Shown piece by piece: positions 35,199-64,000 of a stretch of DNA of 64,000 nt; positions within the stretch are counted from its first letter, which is position 1; every line of letters begins with the position of its first letter. This DNA is from Alkalispirochaeta sp. Its GTDB lineage: Bacteria; Spirochaetota; Spirochaetia; DSM-27196; Alkalispirochaetaceae. Position numbers and translations under genes: made by a program. Location: positions 1,504,001 through 1,568,000 of the forward strand of contig OZ271854.1 of NCBI GenBank assembly GCA_965601925.1, in the 5' to 3' direction. Below the pieces are notes generated by a model. That model had not been told where the DNA came from, ran no database searches, and was given only the letters and a program-made list of their open reading frames with translations.

Positions 35199-35331
35199 CA
35201 GGCAATTTCAAGAATCGGCGATTTTTGGAAATGCCAGGACTTCTAGAAATCATAATCATATACTGTGTATATAATTATGATTTCGACCCGATATTGAGGC
35301 TCTTGCAAAATGCAATTTAGAAAGAGCCTCA
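35199..35331. repeat. 133-bp AT-rich three-hairpin element, copy 1 (MITE/REPIN-like)
   Basis: Colinear with 61770-61902; three consecutive ~17-bp inverted repeats. Confidence 0.9.
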
Positions 35332-57931: not shown

Positions 57932-59209
57932 TCACGGCCGGACGCGCTTTCGATCCCTGGGAAAGAGAGAGGCTTCCTTCACGTTTTGGAGCCCAAGAAT
58001 CTTCTGAGTAATCCGCTCCAAGCCGATCGCAAACCCACCGTGGGGAGGGCACCCGTACTTGAAAATCGTGCAGTAATCACCCAACCCCTCTTCGGTGAGC
58101 CCGAACTTCGGGAGCGTTTCGGTAAGCATGCGATAATCGTGAATGCGCTGACCACCGGTAGTAATCTCGAGTCCGCGAAAGAGCAGATCGAAACTGCGCG
58201 TCCCCCGTCCTTCGGGATAGGTGTAGAACGGTCGCTTCTTTCGCGGGAACCCGAAGACGAATACCGCCTCGACGCCGTGCTCCTCAGCCGCCCACTCGCA
58301 GAGGACCCGCTCTCCCTCGGGATTGATCTCAAAGGCGGTCTTGCCGGTCCGCGCCCTGATGATCGTTTTGGCCTTGTCATGGTTGATTCTGGGGGTACGT
58401 GCAATCTCATCGGCGCTCGGCACGGTTGCGTCGAACTCCTTGAGAATATCGCCGTGGTCGTCGGCGACCCTGGAGAAGATGTGGCCCAATAGGCCCACTT
58501 CCAGATCCATCACATCGGATTCGCTGTCGATAAACCCCATCTCAACGTCGAGTGAGACGTACTCGTTCAGATGTCGCGGGGTATCGTGCTTCTCGGCGCG
58601 ATACGCGGCGCCGATCTCAAAGACGCGCTCCAGCCCGCTCGAGACCATCGCCTGCTTGTAGAACTGGGGGCTCTGGGCGAGATACACCCGCTCGCCGAAA
58701 TAGTCGACGGAGAACAGCCCCGTGCCCCCCTCGGTACCCGACCCGATGATCTTGGACGACTTGATCTCGGTAAATCCCTCGCTCCTCAGCCAGTCGGCGA
58801 AATAGTGCACGATCGCCGCCTGGAGTTCGAATATGCGGCGAATGTGCGGATTACGAAGGCTGACGATCCGATTGTCGAGAACTGAATCGATACCGACGTT
58901 GCCGAGATCTTGATTGACGGCGATCGGAAGATCGGGGTCGGCCTCCGCAAGAACCTCGGTCTCGGCGACGTGAAGCTCGTAGCCGCCGGGAGCCTTGTCA
59001 TTCGCACTGACCGTACCGCCGACGGTGACTACCGTTTCGTTACCGAACGTGGGCGGCGTTTGGTACACCAACTGCGCCATACCGCTGCGATCCCGCACCA
59101 TTACGAAGGTGATACCGCCGAGGTTCCGCACACGGTGGACCCATCCGGACACGGTGATATGCTCGTCGGCGTGGCGGGCTAAATCGGCCGCCAAAACTCT
59201 CTCATTCAT
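57932..59209 (-). CDS. aspS: Archaeal-type non-discriminating aspartyl-tRNA synthetase (AspRS2)
   Basis: 425 aa without the bacterial GAD insert; GWVH and KAPGG in the anticodon domain; YLAQSPQFYKQ, YRAE..RHLNE, PPHGGFAIGLER, LFPRD. Confidence 0.93.
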   Translation of the reverse strand: MNERVLAADLARHADEHITVSGWVHRVRNLGGITFVMVRDRSGMAQLVYQTPPTFGNETVVTVGGTVSANDKAPGGYELHVAETEVLAEADPDLPIAVNQDLGNVGIDSVLDNRIVSLRNPHIRRIFELQAAIVHYFADWLRSEGFTEIKSSKIIGSGTEGGTGLFSVDYFGERVYLAQSPQFYKQAMVSSGLERVFEIGAAYRAEKHDTPRHLNEYVSLDVEMGFIDSESDVMDLEVGLLGHIFSRVADDHGDILKEFDATVPSADEIARTPRINHDKAKTIIRARTGKTAFEINPEGERVLCEWAAEEHGVEAVFVFGFPRKKRPFYTYPEGRGTRSFDLLFRGLEITTGGQRIHDYRMLTETLPKFGLTEEGLGDYCTIFKYGCPPHGGFAIGLERITQKILGLQNVKEASLFPRDRKRVRP

Positions 59210-59211
59210 CG

Positions 59212-61713
59212 TCAGTCCTCCATCAGGGCAAGTACGCGTTCGGTGTAACGACGATCGGCGGAGGCGTTCAATAACGCCTCTACCGCTTCGGCATCGATAT
59301 CGTCGTAGTCTCCGGCGCCGAGCGCCGCCTCAATCTGGGCCGTTATGAGGCGTGTCCACGCCGCCTCGGTCGCGAGCCCTCCCATGGGTACCGCACCTTC
59401 GCGCCACAACTGGTGAGCGGTCACATACTCTGAGAAATCGACCGCTCCCTCCTGTTGAGAGGTGCAAAAGAACTGTACACCTTTCCCGCGGCCGTGGGAA
59501 AAGGCCTTGCGGAGCGAAAACGGCGACTCGCGAAGGTTGGCCGTGCCGGTGTCGAAGAGCTCGAGTACGAAGTAACGGACTCCCGCATCCATGAGGGCCA
59601 TCAAGGCCTCTCCGCGGAGACCAGGATAGACTTTGACGATATGGGTGCGCCCAATCGCTACTTCCAAAGCGCGCTCCAAGGTCGGCTGCGATAGGCTCCG
59701 TGCCGATCGCGCAATCGCCCGTCCTCCGCGATGGAGCCCGTCACCGTTCCAATTGCGAAACCGCCCCGCGACGGCGCCCCCGGCCTCCGGTCTGTCCGCG
59801 ACTCGTACACTTTCAAACTTGAGATTGACCGCGAAGTAATCCGTTTCGCCGTAGACGACGTGAATTCCCCTCTCCCCTCCGGCGGCGACACCGACGGCGT
59901 TTCGAAGATTTACCGCGGCCTCGCCGGTCGGTCCCTCGTCGGTAGGCGCGGTACTCGCGGTCAGTACGACGGGTATCGACGCATCGGCGAAGAACCAGTA
60001 GAGCAGACTGGCGGTGTAGGAGAGTGTATCCGTCCCGTGACCGATCACGATTCCGCGACTGCGGCTCTGGTCGAGTGAATGGGCGGTATGCGCTACGAGA
60101 GCGGCCCAATCGGAGGGAGTGATCTCCTCGCTCAGAAACTGCCCCAGCCGTATCTCCTCGAAGCGTACGTCGCCGGGAAGGTCGGGATCGTTCCGAAAGA
60201 GTGTATCGAGACTCACCAAATCGCCCGGTACTACCAAGCCGTCGTCCCGGCGTTGCCCGGCGATCGCGCCGCCGAACGAGTACACCTCGATCGTACTGAC
60301 GGCAAAGCGCTCGGCGAGGAGCTCTTGCACAACTCGAGGCTCCGCCCGGCCGCTGGTGACCTTCATGATCCGGCCGACCAAAAAGCCGATCGGCTTGGTG
60401 TCGCCGGAAGCGATCTGTTCGGCGGCTTGGGTATTTGCCGCGAGCACGTCGTCGACGATACGGCCAAGCGCATCGCGGTCGGTTATCTGCTCCCAGCCTT
60501 GTTCGCGAATAATCGTCGCCGGGTCTTTGTCCTCTTCAAACACGAGTTCCAAGACCTGCTTGGCAATTTTTCCGTGAATCGTGCCATCGGCGAGAAGGCG
60601 TAGGAGATCGGCCAATCGATTCGGCGTGAGCGCCGTCGCCTCGAGCCGTTCGGCGCGCCGATTGAGTTGCTTGCGGACGTCGCCGGCGAGCCATATCGCG
60701 ACCTGCTGGGCGTCGGCGCCCGCGGAGACCGTCGATTCAAAGAAGTCGGCGCCCTCCTTCTCGTCGCAGAGAAAATCTGCCTGTGCGGCGCCGAGCCCGT
60801 ACTCGTCGACGAACCGCGCCCGTCTGGCGGCCGGCAGCTCCACTAATCGCCCCTCGACCTCGCGGAGAAAGGCCTCACCGGTTCGAAAATGGGGCAGGTC
60901 CGGTTCGGGAAAGTAGCGATAATCGTGAGAGCTCTCTTTGGTGCGCATACTCTCGGTAAGGTCGCGATTCTCGTTCCACAGACGCGTCTGTTGGGCAACC
61001 GTCCCGCTACGCTCAAGAATCTCCCGTTGGCGTTCGATCTCGTAATTAAGCGCCTTGCGCACGAAGCGCGAGCTGTTCAAGTTCTTGATCTCGACCTTGC
61101 TTCCGAGACCCCGGCCGCGTACATTGACCGAAACGTTCGCGTCGCAGCGCATCGAACCTTCTTCCATATTGCCGTCACACACGCCGAGATAGCGCACGAT
61201 GCGGCGTAACTCCTGCAGCAGAACCTCGGCCTCTTCGCCGATTTCCAGATCGGGCTCGGTGACGATCTCCAGGAGGGGTGTGCCAGCGCGATTGTAATCC
61301 AGAAGCGACATGTCGCCGGCGTGGATCATTTTGCCCGCGTCCTCTTCCAGATGAATCTCGTGGATTCGCACGCGCTTTTTCTTTTTGTGGAACTCGAGAT
61401 CGAGGTACCCGTTGCGCCCTACCGGCTCGTGAAATTGCGATATCTGGTAATTCTTGGGAAGATCGGGATAGAAGTAGTTTTTGCGATCGAAGACGCACTC
61501 GTCATTGAGCTCGCAATTGAGTGAACGCGCGACCGTGTACGCCATGGCGATCGCCTCGCCGTTGAGCGCCGGCAACACCCCGGGGTAGCCCATGCACACG
61601 GGGCACACGTTGGTGTTGGGCTCGTCGCCGAAATTGGCGCGACAGCCGCAAAACACCTTGGTTGCCGTCAGAAGCTGGATATGAATTTCGAGCCCTACAA
61701 ACGATTGGTACAC
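59212..61713 (-). CDS. gatB: GatB fused to a C-terminal asparaginase/GatD-like domain
   Basis: GLEIH, RKNYFYPDLPKNYQISQ, HLEEDAGK, RCDANVS, EIKNLNS, DYRYFPEPDL, YqeY tail; then FGGAIAG..HGTDTLSYTAS..VVLTAS. Confidence 0.93.
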   Translation of the reverse strand: MYQSFVGLEIHIQLLTATKVFCGCRANFGDEPNTNVCPVCMGYPGVLPALNGEAIAMAYTVARSLNCELNDECVFDRKNYFYPDLPKNYQISQFHEPVGRNGYLDLEFHKKKKRVRIHEIHLEEDAGKMIHAGDMSLLDYNRAGTPLLEIVTEPDLEIGEEAEVLLQELRRIVRYLGVCDGNMEEGSMRCDANVSVNVRGRGLGSKVEIKNLNSSRFVRKALNYEIERQREILERSGTVAQQTRLWNENRDLTESMRTKESSHDYRYFPEPDLPHFRTGEAFLREVEGRLVELPAARRARFVDEYGLGAAQADFLCDEKEGADFFESTVSAGADAQQVAIWLAGDVRKQLNRRAERLEATALTPNRLADLLRLLADGTIHGKIAKQVLELVFEEDKDPATIIREQGWEQITDRDALGRIVDDVLAANTQAAEQIASGDTKPIGFLVGRIMKVTSGRAEPRVVQELLAERFAVSTIEVYSFGGAIAGQRRDDGLVVPGDLVSLDTLFRNDPDLPGDVRFEEIRLGQFLSEEITPSDWAALVAHTAHSLDQSRSRGIVIGHGTDTLSYTASLLYWFFADASIPVVLTASTAPTDEGPTGEAAVNLRNAVGVAAGGERGIHVVYGETDYFAVNLKFESVRVADRPEAGGAVAGRFRNWNGDGLHRGGRAIARSARSLSQPTLERALEVAIGRTHIVKVYPGLRGEALMALMDAGVRYFVLELFDTGTANLRESPFSLRKAFSHGRGKGVQFFCTSQQEGAVDFSEYVTAHQLWREGAVPMGGLATEAAWTRLITAQIEAALGAGDYDDIDAEAVEALLNASADRRYTERVLALMED

Positions 61714-61769
61714 GCTTTCTACACCTCCCTCCGCATCGATACGGTGCGACGCGGCCGGGTTTTATATCA

Positions 61770-61902
61770 CAGGCAATTTCAAAAATCGACGATTTTTGAA
61801 ATTGTCAGGATCTTTAGAAATCATAATTATATATCATGTATATAATTATGATTTCGACCCGATATTGAGGCTCTTGAAAAATGCAATTTTTCAAGAGCCT
61901 CA
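61770..61902. repeat. 133-bp AT-rich three-hairpin element, copy 2, between gatA and gatB
   Basis: GGCAATTTCAAAAATCG/CGATTTTTGAAATTGTC; GAAATCATAATTATATA/TATATAATTATGATTTC; TGAGGCTCTTGAAAAAT/ATTTTTCAAGAGCCTCA. Confidence 0.92.
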
Positions 61903-61940: not shown

Positions 61941-63347
61941 TTATCGCCAATGAGAGAAGGAGACGCTCTCGCGTGGGAACTGCATCGGCACGACCGACGC
62001 CAGCTGCCGCGCCACAGCGAATAACCGTTCCTCGCTGAATGAAGGTCCCATGAGCTGCATACCGACCGGAAGGCCGCCCTCCACGCCCGTCGGCACGGTC
62101 AAAGCCGGTGTTCCCGTCAAATTCGCCGTCCCGGTAAACCGATCGGCGACCTTCTGCTGAAACGGGTCCATCCCTTCGTCTCCGTGGAGAAAGGCCTGAG
62201 TCGGAAACGCGGGAAGCAGGAGGGCATCGACCGATCGAAATACCTCATCAAGTTCTCGTCGAATCAACGTGCGAATCTTTTGCGCCCGGGCATAGTACCG
62301 ATCCTGAAAGCCGCTGCGAAGCACGTAGGTGCCGAGGACCACGCGGAGTTTGACCTCATCGCCGAATCCTTCGCTGCGCGCCTTGCGCATGAGTTCCTCG
62401 GGATTCTCAGCATATATCGGATGGTATCCGTAGCGCACGCCGTTGTAGCGCGCCAGGTTGGCGCTCGCCTCCGCTGAGGCGATCGTGTAGTACGCCGGGA
62501 CAACGTACTCCAGCGTCGAAAGGGTGATCGTCTCCGTACGATACCCGAGCGTACCGAGCGCATCGGCGGTGTCCCGATAGTTCCGCGCCACCGCATCGTC
62601 CAGCCCGAGGTCGCCGCCGAGGATGCCGACGGTCCCGCCGGGGGCCGCCTCGGCCGGTCGTTCGGCATCGGCGGGAATCACTACCGAGCTCTGGTCCTTC
62701 TCGTCCGCACCGCGCATCGCGCGATAGGTATCGGCAAGCATATCGATATCGGCGGCGATCACTCCGACGACCTCCAGGGACGAGGCATACGCGACCAGCC
62801 CGTATCGCGAAACGGTGCCGTAGGTCGGCTTGAGGCCGTACACGCCGCAGAACGCCGCAGGCTGGCGGATCGAGCCGCCGGTGTCGCTGCCGATCGCAAC
62901 GGGAACCAGCTGTTGTGCCACCGCCGCCGCCGAACCGCCGCTCGAGCCGCCGGCAACGCGCTGCGAATCCCAGGGATTGTTCGTGACTTTGAGCGCCGAA
63001 TTGTCGGTGGAACTTCCCATGCCGAACTCATCGAGATTCGTCTTGCCGACGATCTCGGCGCCGGCGGCACGCAATCGTTCGACTGAGCGTGCATCGTAGG
63101 GACAGACGAACTCCTCGAGCATGCGTGAGCCGCATGTGAGTCTATACCCCTTGACAGCAATGTTATCCTTTACGGCGATGGGAATCCGTAACGTTACATT
63201 CGAGCTATCCGAGGACACGCCGCTCGGCGACCACTGTGCGGGGTCGCCGTACTCCAGAAACGCACCGACACGACGATCTTGTTCCTGTATGAAGCGCGCA
63301 TACGATGAACGCGACTCGGCAGAAAGAGATTTGTCCCACATCGGCAT
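61941..63347 (-). CDS. gatA: Asp/Glu-tRNA amidotransferase subunit A
   Basis: VKDNI, GKTNLDEFGMGSST, GGSSGGSAAA, GSDTGGSIRQPA amidase signature; LARYNGVRYG. Confidence 0.96.
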   Translation of the reverse strand: MPMWDKSLSAESRSSYARFIQEQDRRVGAFLEYGDPAQWSPSGVSSDSSNVTLRIPIAVKDNIAVKGYRLTCGSRMLEEFVCPYDARSVERLRAAGAEIVGKTNLDEFGMGSSTDNSALKVTNNPWDSQRVAGGSSGGSAAAVAQQLVPVAIGSDTGGSIRQPAAFCGVYGLKPTYGTVSRYGLVAYASSLEVVGVIAADIDMLADTYRAMRGADEKDQSSVVIPADAERPAEAAPGGTVGILGGDLGLDDAVARNYRDTADALGTLGYRTETITLSTLEYVVPAYYTIASAEASANLARYNGVRYGYHPIYAENPEELMRKARSEGFGDEVKLRVVLGTYVLRSGFQDRYYARAQKIRTLIRRELDEVFRSVDALLLPAFPTQAFLHGDEGMDPFQQKVADRFTGTANLTGTPALTVPTGVEGGLPVGMQLMGPSFSEERLFAVARQLASVVPMQFPRESVSFSHWR

Positions 63348-63626
63348 CTACAAGACATTGGGGATCGCGATGAGTCGATCCTCGAGATCGGGTGCATTCT
63401 CGAGTAGGCTGTCGGGATCGGTCTCGGATCGAAGCACGTCGGGCCGCACGCGATATGCGCTTTCCGATGCGTGTGTTGTCGGCGGTAGGTGGTCGACATC
63501 CACGGATGCCATGACGGCAAAATACTCGAGCATCTGCTCGACCGCGCCCTCAAAAGCTGCGATCTGTGCGTCGTCCAGCTCGAGCATCGCCATGTCGACC
63601 GTCGTTTTGAGCTCGGACGCGTCCAT
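63348..63626 (-). CDS. gatC: Asp/Glu-tRNA amidotransferase subunit C
   Basis: ~92 aa from ATG at 63626; VDVDHLPPT..R.D..LLENAP....IPNVL; abuts gatA. Confidence 0.88.
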   Translation of the reverse strand: MDASELKTTVDMAMLELDDAQIAAFEGAVEQMLEYFAVMASVDVDHLPPTTHASESAYRVRPDVLRSETDPDSLLENAPDLEDRLIAIPNVL

Positions 63627-63749
63627 GGGGGCAACTATGACAGTGAGGTATTGGCCTGTCAAGCAAGGACTTGGCGGCCATTTGACGAACCGGTCGGCAC
63701 GCGCTATGTTTGGCATCGCTCCACAGGCAAATCAATAGGTACAGCAGAC

Positions 63750-64000
63750 GTGGTAACCAAGAAAGAATTCCCCACTATTCATTTTTACGATCAAGACTTC
63801 GTAGACATCTACGAGCAAACCTGGGCGTGGATCCAGGACCACTGGCAAAAGGCGACGAGCCGCAACGGGTTTGAACCGCGGTTTTTTGTCGCTCCGGACG
63901 CGGATAGGATAAATCAGACCGACGCGATTTTCTCGTCTTTCTTTCTCGTGTACAGCAACAAGAACTATCCGGCCGCTCCTCAACTGGACAACTTTTACAA
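63750..64000 (+). CDS. Partial ORF, trehalase/MGH1-like glycoside hydrolase N-terminus (spirochaete type)
   Basis: GTG start; VTKKEFPTIHFYDQDFVDIYEQTWAWIQDHW..IFSSFFLVYSN..LDNFY, open to the window end; family call recalled from spirochaete proteins. Confidence 0.6.
   Translation, partial: MVTKKEFPTIHFYDQDFVDIYEQTWAWIQDHWQKATSRNGFEPRFFVAPDADRINQTDAIFSSFFLVYSNKNYPAAPQLDNFY

Follow-up and report, generated by a model that had tools for sequence, protein, structure and literature searches.

A 64,000-nucleotide window of an Alkalispirochaeta sp. genome (contig OZ271854.1, positions 1,504,001 to 1,568,000) carries a gene in which GatB, a subunit of the tRNA-dependent amidotransferase GatCAB, is fused to an asparaginase-fold domain that, judged by its residues, has lost catalysis while keeping its amino-acid pocket. 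The gene occupies 59212..61713 on the minus strand, as do all features below unless stated otherwise, and encodes 833 amino acids (aa) from a GTG start without an internal stop. The fusion is real and conserved, and its sequence marks it as a variant of GatCAB and not as a GatD hybrid. We give even chances to the reading that the domain is a dimeric asparagine-binding pseudo-enzyme that sits by the tRNA-binding tail of GatB and damps the route through GatCAB and the archaeal-type aspartyl-tRNA synthetase AspRS2 when asparaginyl-tRNA synthetase (AsnRS) suffices.

Pfam searches identified the GatB cradle at aa 5-282 (60868..61701; GatB_N PF02934, E 7e-115), the helical/YqeY tail at aa 323-469 (60307..60747; GatB_Yqey PF02637, E 2e-44), an asparaginase N-terminal domain at aa 475-624 (59842..60291; PF00710, E 3e-24, over the cut-off) and an asparaginase C-terminal domain at aa 691-792 (59338..59643; PF17763, E 5e-7, under the cut-off). 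These matches bear out a sequence-only reading of the same DNA, which had noticed that GatB ends and asparaginase motifs continue within one open reading frame. The C-terminal domain contains the motifs DTGTA, CTSQQE and Y..LW..GA.PMG, which stood out in a conservation comparison. With both GatB_N and YqeY parts present, the fusion scores 548 bits against the GatB model TIGR00133 (cut-off 314.8), and the catalytic residues of its cradle are intact (His11, Glu123, Glu149, Asp191 and Glu208), including the Asp and Glu of the second metal site. The GatB ligands were mapped by motif to His15, Glu157 and Glu184 of GatE (PMC2330236). The asparaginase part scores 105.6 bits against TIGR00519 (cut-off 260.5) and 94 bits against the GatD model TIGR02153 (cut-off 324), the latter alignment beginning at model position 64; the N-terminal domain of GatD is absent. 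An AlphaFold2 model of the domain, built from a 97-row alignment, had a predicted local distance difference test score of 93.9. Foldseek searches with this model returned asparaginases (best E 1e-19, template modelling score about 0.7), with archaeal type I asparaginases at the top and GatD of Pyrococcus abyssi at rank 7. On the predicted structure, the extra domain is a two-domain asparaginase fold, in agreement with the Pfam match. The full-length fusion model had a predicted template modelling score of 0.68, too low to fix the packing of the domains, and in it the extra domain's first strand directly follows the last helix of the YqeY tail. In 97/99 fusions the span between Pro459 and Gly481 measures 22 residues.

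Residue positions were mapped by alignment with Escherichia coli AnsA and AnsB, and substitutions were tallied over 99 full-length fusions. The position of the nucleophile (AnsA Thr14, AnsB Thr12) is Ala483, encoded by a GCG codon at 60265..60267 within FGGAI, as had been read from the letters (60267-60265). The same position is Ala in 93/99 fusions, Ser in three, Thr in two and Val in one. A second loss was absent from the earlier reading: the position of the catalytic Lys (AnsA Lys163, AnsB Lys162) is Phe633 (59815..59817), and among the fusions it is Phe in 88, Met in 9, Leu in 2 and Lys in 0/99. The nearest stand-alone relative (P0085) has TGGTI and GTNLRK where the fusion has FGGAI and AVNLKF, and the alignment register at Phe633 is fixed because GTNLRK aligns with AVNLKF. 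The domain therefore has no Thr nucleophile and an incomplete Thr-Lys-Asp triad, in which Thr561 and Asp562 are present and Lys is replaced. These two residues (AnsB Thr89 and Asp90) lie in an intact HGTDT motif at aa 559-563 (60025..60039), whose start at His559 had also been read correctly. Asp562 is invariant (99/99) and Thr561 is substituted in 12/99, nine deep-branching rows having Leu in its place. The substrate pocket is retained in the form of Ser528, Glu529 and Asp562: the Ser528-Glu529-Glu530 stretch (60124..60132) aligns with AnsB Ser58 and Gln59, and Ser528 and Glu529 are each kept in 98/99 fusions. In AnsB, Ser58, Gln59 and Asp90 bind the substrate. A deep fusion clade (P0023, P0024, P0034, P0035, P0037 and P0158-P0162) combines HGLD with Met at the Lys position and so has lost each of the three catalytic residues, with Ser, Glu and Asp retained.

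Catalysis by asparaginases depends on Thr12, Thr89, Asp90 and Lys162 (PMC8948990), and GatD requires the same set, a Thr nucleophile plus a Thr-Lys-Asp triad (PMC2330236). According to their entry titles, the PDB structures 7c8x (T13A), 5dnc (T19A) and 5dne (K188M) are asparaginase mutants with asparagine bound. The ratio of nonsynonymous to synonymous substitution rates (dN/dS) of the domain, estimated by simple counting in 12 hand-picked close pairs with dS above 1.5 in four, was 0.012-0.097 in seven intact pairs and 0.018-0.057 in five pairs of a degenerate paralogue described below. Substitution patterns thus place the domain under purifying selection, and the residue tallies indicate that catalysis was lost while the amino-acid pocket was kept.

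The domain was matched in 47/60 relatives of the same order. At all 39 translated loci it is in frame with the GatB tail, 37 of them also including the cradle and two being cut by a contig end. A scan of GTDB confirmed 229 of 271 candidates, and the best 80 stretches all carry Spirochaetota titles. In 77 of these 80 the domain is in frame with GatB, the remaining three starting at a contig edge. An assembly artefact or a stop codon at the junction, which had been raised as a possibility, does not survive these counts. The domain was found in 16/150 genomes of an even class sample and in 1/120 of an even phylum sample, and the deep branch of the fusion includes a Candidatus Wallbacteria protein. 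A profile search of 1.84 billion representatives returned the fusion family as the top 35 matches, followed by stand-alone asparaginases, and in the ESM Atlas two clusters, of 70 and 65 members, combine the three Pfam domains and are labelled GatB and Asparaginase. The architecture is therefore already in databases under misleading names (GatB, glutamyl-tRNA amidotransferase, asparaginase). When shorter proteins were searched for a whole stand-alone copy of the dead domain, 83 of 102 candidates matched, mostly on 1-3 kb contigs and labelled GatB; the six fused-type short proteins that were read start in the GatB tail or at GGAI, and such a copy may yet be among about ten long-contig matches beyond that set. 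Our literature search found no study of the fusion; it covered mostly sources outside subscription journals, and a mention in a table could have been missed.

To place the domain we compared it with stand-alone asparaginases and GatD. In a tree of 87 rows the fused domains form one clade (Shimodaira-Hasegawa-like approximate likelihood ratio test support 99), separate from nine NCBIfam-verified GatD proteins, and a mixture model on 45 of the 87 rows agrees. The domain is closest to type I-like asparaginases that stand alone and have Thr and Lys intact. Descent of the domain from GatD was rejected by an approximately unbiased (AU) test of fused domains and GatD as one clade (p=0.0004; 10 fused and 7 GatD rows, quick tree). 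The kinship with GatD that had been suspected thus gives way to one with type I-like asparaginases, and the motif FLSEEITPSDW, once taken as GatD-like, is uninformative on this point, its Ser-Glu pair being found also in most of 59 stand-alone asparaginases. In the genome of the window the single PF02934 match is the fused GatB, and GatE models fall under their cut-offs. A GatB tree of 105 rows interleaves fused and unfused operon copies and implies at least six changes of fused state; it is unrooted, several long branches meet in it, and its label 'unfused without AspRS2' is unreliable at loci with 1.5-kb flanks. Repeated loss of the domain is the simplest reading of this sequence-based tree.

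GatDE has been called exclusively archaeal (PMC2811023). Adjacent gatE and gatD genes, both over their NCBIfam cut-offs, were observed in two bacterial genomes of the same phylum as the window and another class (G123, L148:7299-10624; G106, L149:6708-10021). They lie amid bacterial-looking genes, in L149 beside a bacterial aspS. In one further genome (G191), GatB_N weakly matches a 689-aa frame.

The fusion gene lies in an operon with the order gatC, gatA, gatB fusion, aspS, so that both GatB partners are present. The operon also occurs in Alkalispirochaeta alkalica DSM 8900 (L066), a free-living spirochaete in culture. The gatA gene (61941..63347) was identified by amidase motifs and TIGR00132, against which it scores 478.7 bits, slightly below the cut-off of 481.1. 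Its amidase signature is intact, as previously read, with AVKDN, GGSSGGS and GSDTGGSIRQPA all present. The gatC gene (63348..63659) is over the cut-offs of PF02686 and TIGR00135; its start was our choice, and an alternative in-frame upstream ATG lies at 63716. The aspS gene (57932..59209), which begins 2 nt past the gatB stop, encodes an archaeal-type non-discriminating AspRS2 (TIGR00458 and NF003483, both over cut-off). Ammonia in bacterial GatCAB is supplied by GatA. In Thermus and Deinococcus, AspRS2 and GatCAB together make asparagine on tRNA(Asn) (PMC2330236, PMC4206432).

The genome of the window also encodes AsnRS, glutaminyl-tRNA synthetase (GlnRS), glutamyl-tRNA synthetase and a bacterial AspRS, has one gatB only, and has a tRNA(Asn) with U1-A72. 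The asparagine synthetase gene asnA was not found in this genome (96.7% complete). We surveyed a panel of 80 genomes of our choosing, mostly metagenome-assembled, of which 34 have an intact fusion, 6 a degenerate copy and 40 no domain. AspRS2 was found in 34/34, 5/6 and 17/40 of these groups, respectively, AsnRS in 33/34, 6/6 and 39/40, GlnRS in 26/34, 5/6 and 38/40, and asnA in 17/34, 3/6 and 17/40. From these counts, the domain is tied to the AspRS2 operon, yet the operon does without it and asnA is not tracked. An explanation in which the indirect route is generally the only route to asparagine was rejected, since asnA shows no association with the fusion (17/34 versus 17/40). Because 33/34 fusion genomes have AsnRS, free asparagine can bypass the indirect route.

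Some observations on these genes stand apart from the fusion itself. A 2008 review states that genomes with AsnA form Asn-tRNA by AsnRS and not by GatCAB (PMC2330236); asnA and gatB occur together in many Spirochaetia, and 17 genomes pair asnA with the fused AspRS2 operon. In six Spirochaetia genomes (L199-L204) the aspS that follows gatC-gatA-gatB is bacterial instead of archaeal in type and gatB is unfused; gatC is not visible in every stretch. Genome G198 has two bacterial-type aspS genes. For the discrimination signature of bacterial AspRS, the pattern used caught 19/26 loci, in which the His motif is present, and the Gly position is variable.

Asparaginases dimerise through their C-terminal domain, each pocket being completed by the partner subunit, and a loop closes over the bound substrate. 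The fused domain, having an asparaginase fold without Thr and Lys, would likely dimerise in the same way and bind free asparagine without hydrolysing it; glutamine or aspartate could also be the ligand. Replacement of Lys by Phe would leave the ligand's side chain without a neighbouring positive charge and so favour an amide over an acid, which would still admit glutamine. The closing loop should follow Ala483, some 12 residues beyond the point where the YqeY tail ends, and its closure would move the tail. In Staphylococcus aureus, GatB cannot bind tRNA without its tail, which contacts the D-loop (PMC2811023). Movement of the tail may thus damp tRNA engagement and the formation of Asn-tRNA by AspRS2 and GatCAB; the cell would save ATP and glutamine and limit mischarged Asp-tRNA(Asn) whenever free asparagine is available to AsnRS. 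The sensor reading is favoured because Thr and Lys are lost while Ser528, Glu529 and Asp562 are kept, because the asparagine-bound PDB mutants carry, by their titles, the same changes, because dN/dS is low, and because AspRS2 is present in every intact-fusion genome and AsnRS in all but one. The constant span between tail and domain, with its helix running into a strand, suits mechanical coupling.

Several points weigh against this sensor. We infer its ligand, its dimer and the direction of its effect. With asnA in half of the fusion genomes, the indirect route is not generally the sole source of asparagine; in the window's genome, three AsnB-like genes over TIGR01536 and under the NF006949 cut-off have an uncertain role. 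GlnRS is unmatched in 8/34 fusion genomes, which would need GatCAB for Gln-tRNA, so that a blanket block by asparagine would be harmful. The domain is dispensable, given the 17 genomes that have the same operon without it and the repeated changes of fused state. AsnRS, present in 78/80 panel genomes, has no discriminating power, and the panel was selected by us from related genomes that are not independent. Finally, two genomes in which GatCAB was not found retain a degenerate copy, which plain feedback on GatCAB cannot explain.

This degenerate copy is a treponemal paralogue. At 7 of the best 80 GTDB loci the cradle is degenerate and gatC, gatA and aspS are not neighbours. Five genomes with such a copy have, at another locus, an intact operon, whose gatB is fused in one of them and unfused in the other four. 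Among 79 genomes of the treponemal order, the degenerate gene is full-length in nine and split in one, and one member comes from Treponema phagedenis. WP_024752636.1 is an example of the paralogue. All 20 degenerate rows have Arg11, Arg149, Asn191, Lys208 and Arg210, where all 78 rows with His11 have His, Glu, Asp, Glu and Lys; Glu9, Glu123, Glu124 and Arg189 are kept. The cradle motifs FDRKNYFYPDLPK and YRYFPEPD are lost, and the 3-10 turn is altered. In GatE three metal ligands are essential (PMC2330236; mapped to GatB by motif), and the 3-10 turn of GatB reads U1-A72 (PMC2811023). The degenerate clade is monophyletic in the GatB tree (support 100), and a cradle dN/dS of 0.025-0.123 points to purifying selection in the cradle as well as in the domain. 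Two of the genomes (G332 and G363; 97% complete, about 120 contigs) gave no match to an intact gatB, gatA or AspRS2. Both have asnA, and a GlnRS match was found only in G332. The domain dN/dS was 0.025 for one pair (L160/L161) from two genomes in which neither AspRS2 nor gatA was found. In a further genome (G158), the degenerate fusion is split over three frames (L150, G158:C21:38000-51000), AspRS2 and GlnRS being also unmatched; this copy is either a pseudogene or an assembly error. The sensor could be widened to accommodate the paralogue: in an amino-acid-gated tRNA switch, the reading of asparagine would choose between the AspRS2-GatCAB and AsnRS routes, and the doubly dead treponemal copy would act in trans, even without GatCAB. 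We hold this wider version to be doubtful.

If the dead domain were a scaffold only, it would dimerise two GatCAB units around a dimeric AspRS2 and stabilise the transamidosome, with the pocket kept for the sake of fold or interface. AspRS2 accompanies all intact fusions of the panel and lies directly downstream at 71/73 non-degenerate GTDB loci (one cut by a contig end, one without it), and conservation is higher in the C-terminal domain, the dimer-forming part of asparaginases, than in the YqeY tail, all of which speaks for a scaffold. Nearly invariant pocket residues beside catalytic ones swapped for fixed substitutes suit ligand binding better, and a scaffold does not account for the strong selection in the L160/L161 pair, so that we consider this explanation rather unlikely. 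A role in tRNA quality control apart from transamidation, in which tRNA(Asn) or mischarged Asp-tRNA(Asn), bound by cradle and tail, is held or released according to the amino-acid occupancy of the pocket, would see the treponemal copy as the separated function. Basic residues in place of metal ligands in all degenerate rows, the monophyly, selected cradle and full-length survival of that clade, and G332, which has asnA and GlnRS but yielded no GatCAB, are all consistent with it. The turn that reads U1-A72 is, however, altered in the degenerate form, the absences in G332 and G363 may be gaps in fragmented assemblies (the latter also without a GlnRS match), and the idea may apply to the paralogue rather than to the protein of the window; we judge it unlikely.

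Residual or altered catalysis, through Thr561 and Asp562, would release ammonia from asparagine or glutamine as a GatD-like donor, or act on another amide. HGTDT is intact in the window, P. abyssi GatD is among the structural matches, and 'catalytically deficient' asparaginase variants can retain activity (PMC8948990). Against this, Lys is never and Thr hardly ever present among the fusions, Thr561 itself is replaced in some, a GatD origin is rejected, GatA is intact and the domain is attached to the tail rather than to the cradle. We regard such activity as very improbable, and with it falls the second ammonia donor of a GatCAB-GatD hybrid that the sequence-only reading had entertained, given the additional loss of Lys, the AU test and the missing GatD N-terminal domain. 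That the domain is an assembly artefact or a neutrally decaying appendage is refuted: it has been lost repeatedly and one degenerate gene lies in three frames, but the frame is maintained at the loci counted above and dN/dS is below 0.1 in 12/12 pairs.

The system has recognisable relatives. With the transamidosome of Thermus thermophilus and Deinococcus radiodurans it shares gatC, gatA, the GatB cradle and YqeY tail and AspRS2, as well as AsnRS, GlnRS, a bacterial AspRS and a U1-A72 tRNA(Asn); unlike these, the fusion GatB has about 360 additional residues of asparaginase fold, and asnA is found in half of the fusion genomes. The domain shares with type I L-asparaginases (E. coli AnsA, Pyrococcus/Thermococcus) the fold, GGxI, the Ser, HGTDT and the C-terminal GT and SQ motifs, whereas it lacks Thr and Lys and has always been seen fused to GatB in whole genes. 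Archaeal GatD likewise joins an asparaginase fold to a GatB/GatE-family subunit and has the pocket Ser-Glu in common; the fused domain differs in forming a separate clade, in having neither the N-terminal domain nor Thr and Lys, in its placement after the tail and in the presence of GatA. The laboratory mutants 7c8x, 5dnc and 5dne have, by their titles, changes at the same two positions (Thr to Ala, Lys to a hydrophobic residue). In those single mutants the changes are artificial; in the fusion both are natural, fixed and under selection.

Between gatA and gatB lies an AT-rich palindromic repeat of about 135 bp (61769..61901, no strand assigned), with two perfect palindromes whose arms are 15 and 17 nt. 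The genome has seven other near-full copies (133-147 nt, 85-98% identity) plus several partial ones, and the repeat also occurs in the window at 35199-35331. As the repeat is dispersed through the genome, the gap was rejected as a special regulatory element; the repeat is like a miniature inverted-repeat transposable element or a repetitive extragenic palindrome and stands outside the GatB system. Divergent from gatC, a gene on the plus strand (63753-64000) runs beyond the edge of the window. By eye it matches the family of its L150 orthologue, which hits PF22422 (MGH1-like glycoside hydrolase). Such a gene is present at 84/137 loci, many with flanks that are too short, and adjoins fused, unfused and degenerate gatB alike; the degenerate copy often neighbours the glycoside-hydrolase-like gene found ahead of gatC in the window. 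The sole other PF00710 match in the genome is a 166-aa asparaginase (L042:1498-1998, C1 about 2598265) with intact TGGT and HGTDT and without the C-terminal domain.

For annotation, the finding means that a part labelled asparaginase in databases is without catalytic residues, as is the GatB part of the treponemal proteins. The treponemal paralogue, doubly dead and under apparent purifying selection, points to a possible tRNA-linked function other than transamidation. The regulation of the indirect routes to Asn-tRNA and Gln-tRNA, and their metabolic ties, has been named an open question (PMC2330236), and the fusion is a built-in candidate regulator of the indirect Asn-tRNA route. If true, the switch would give the tRNA-dependent amidotransferases their first described case of allosteric feedback within the literature searched.

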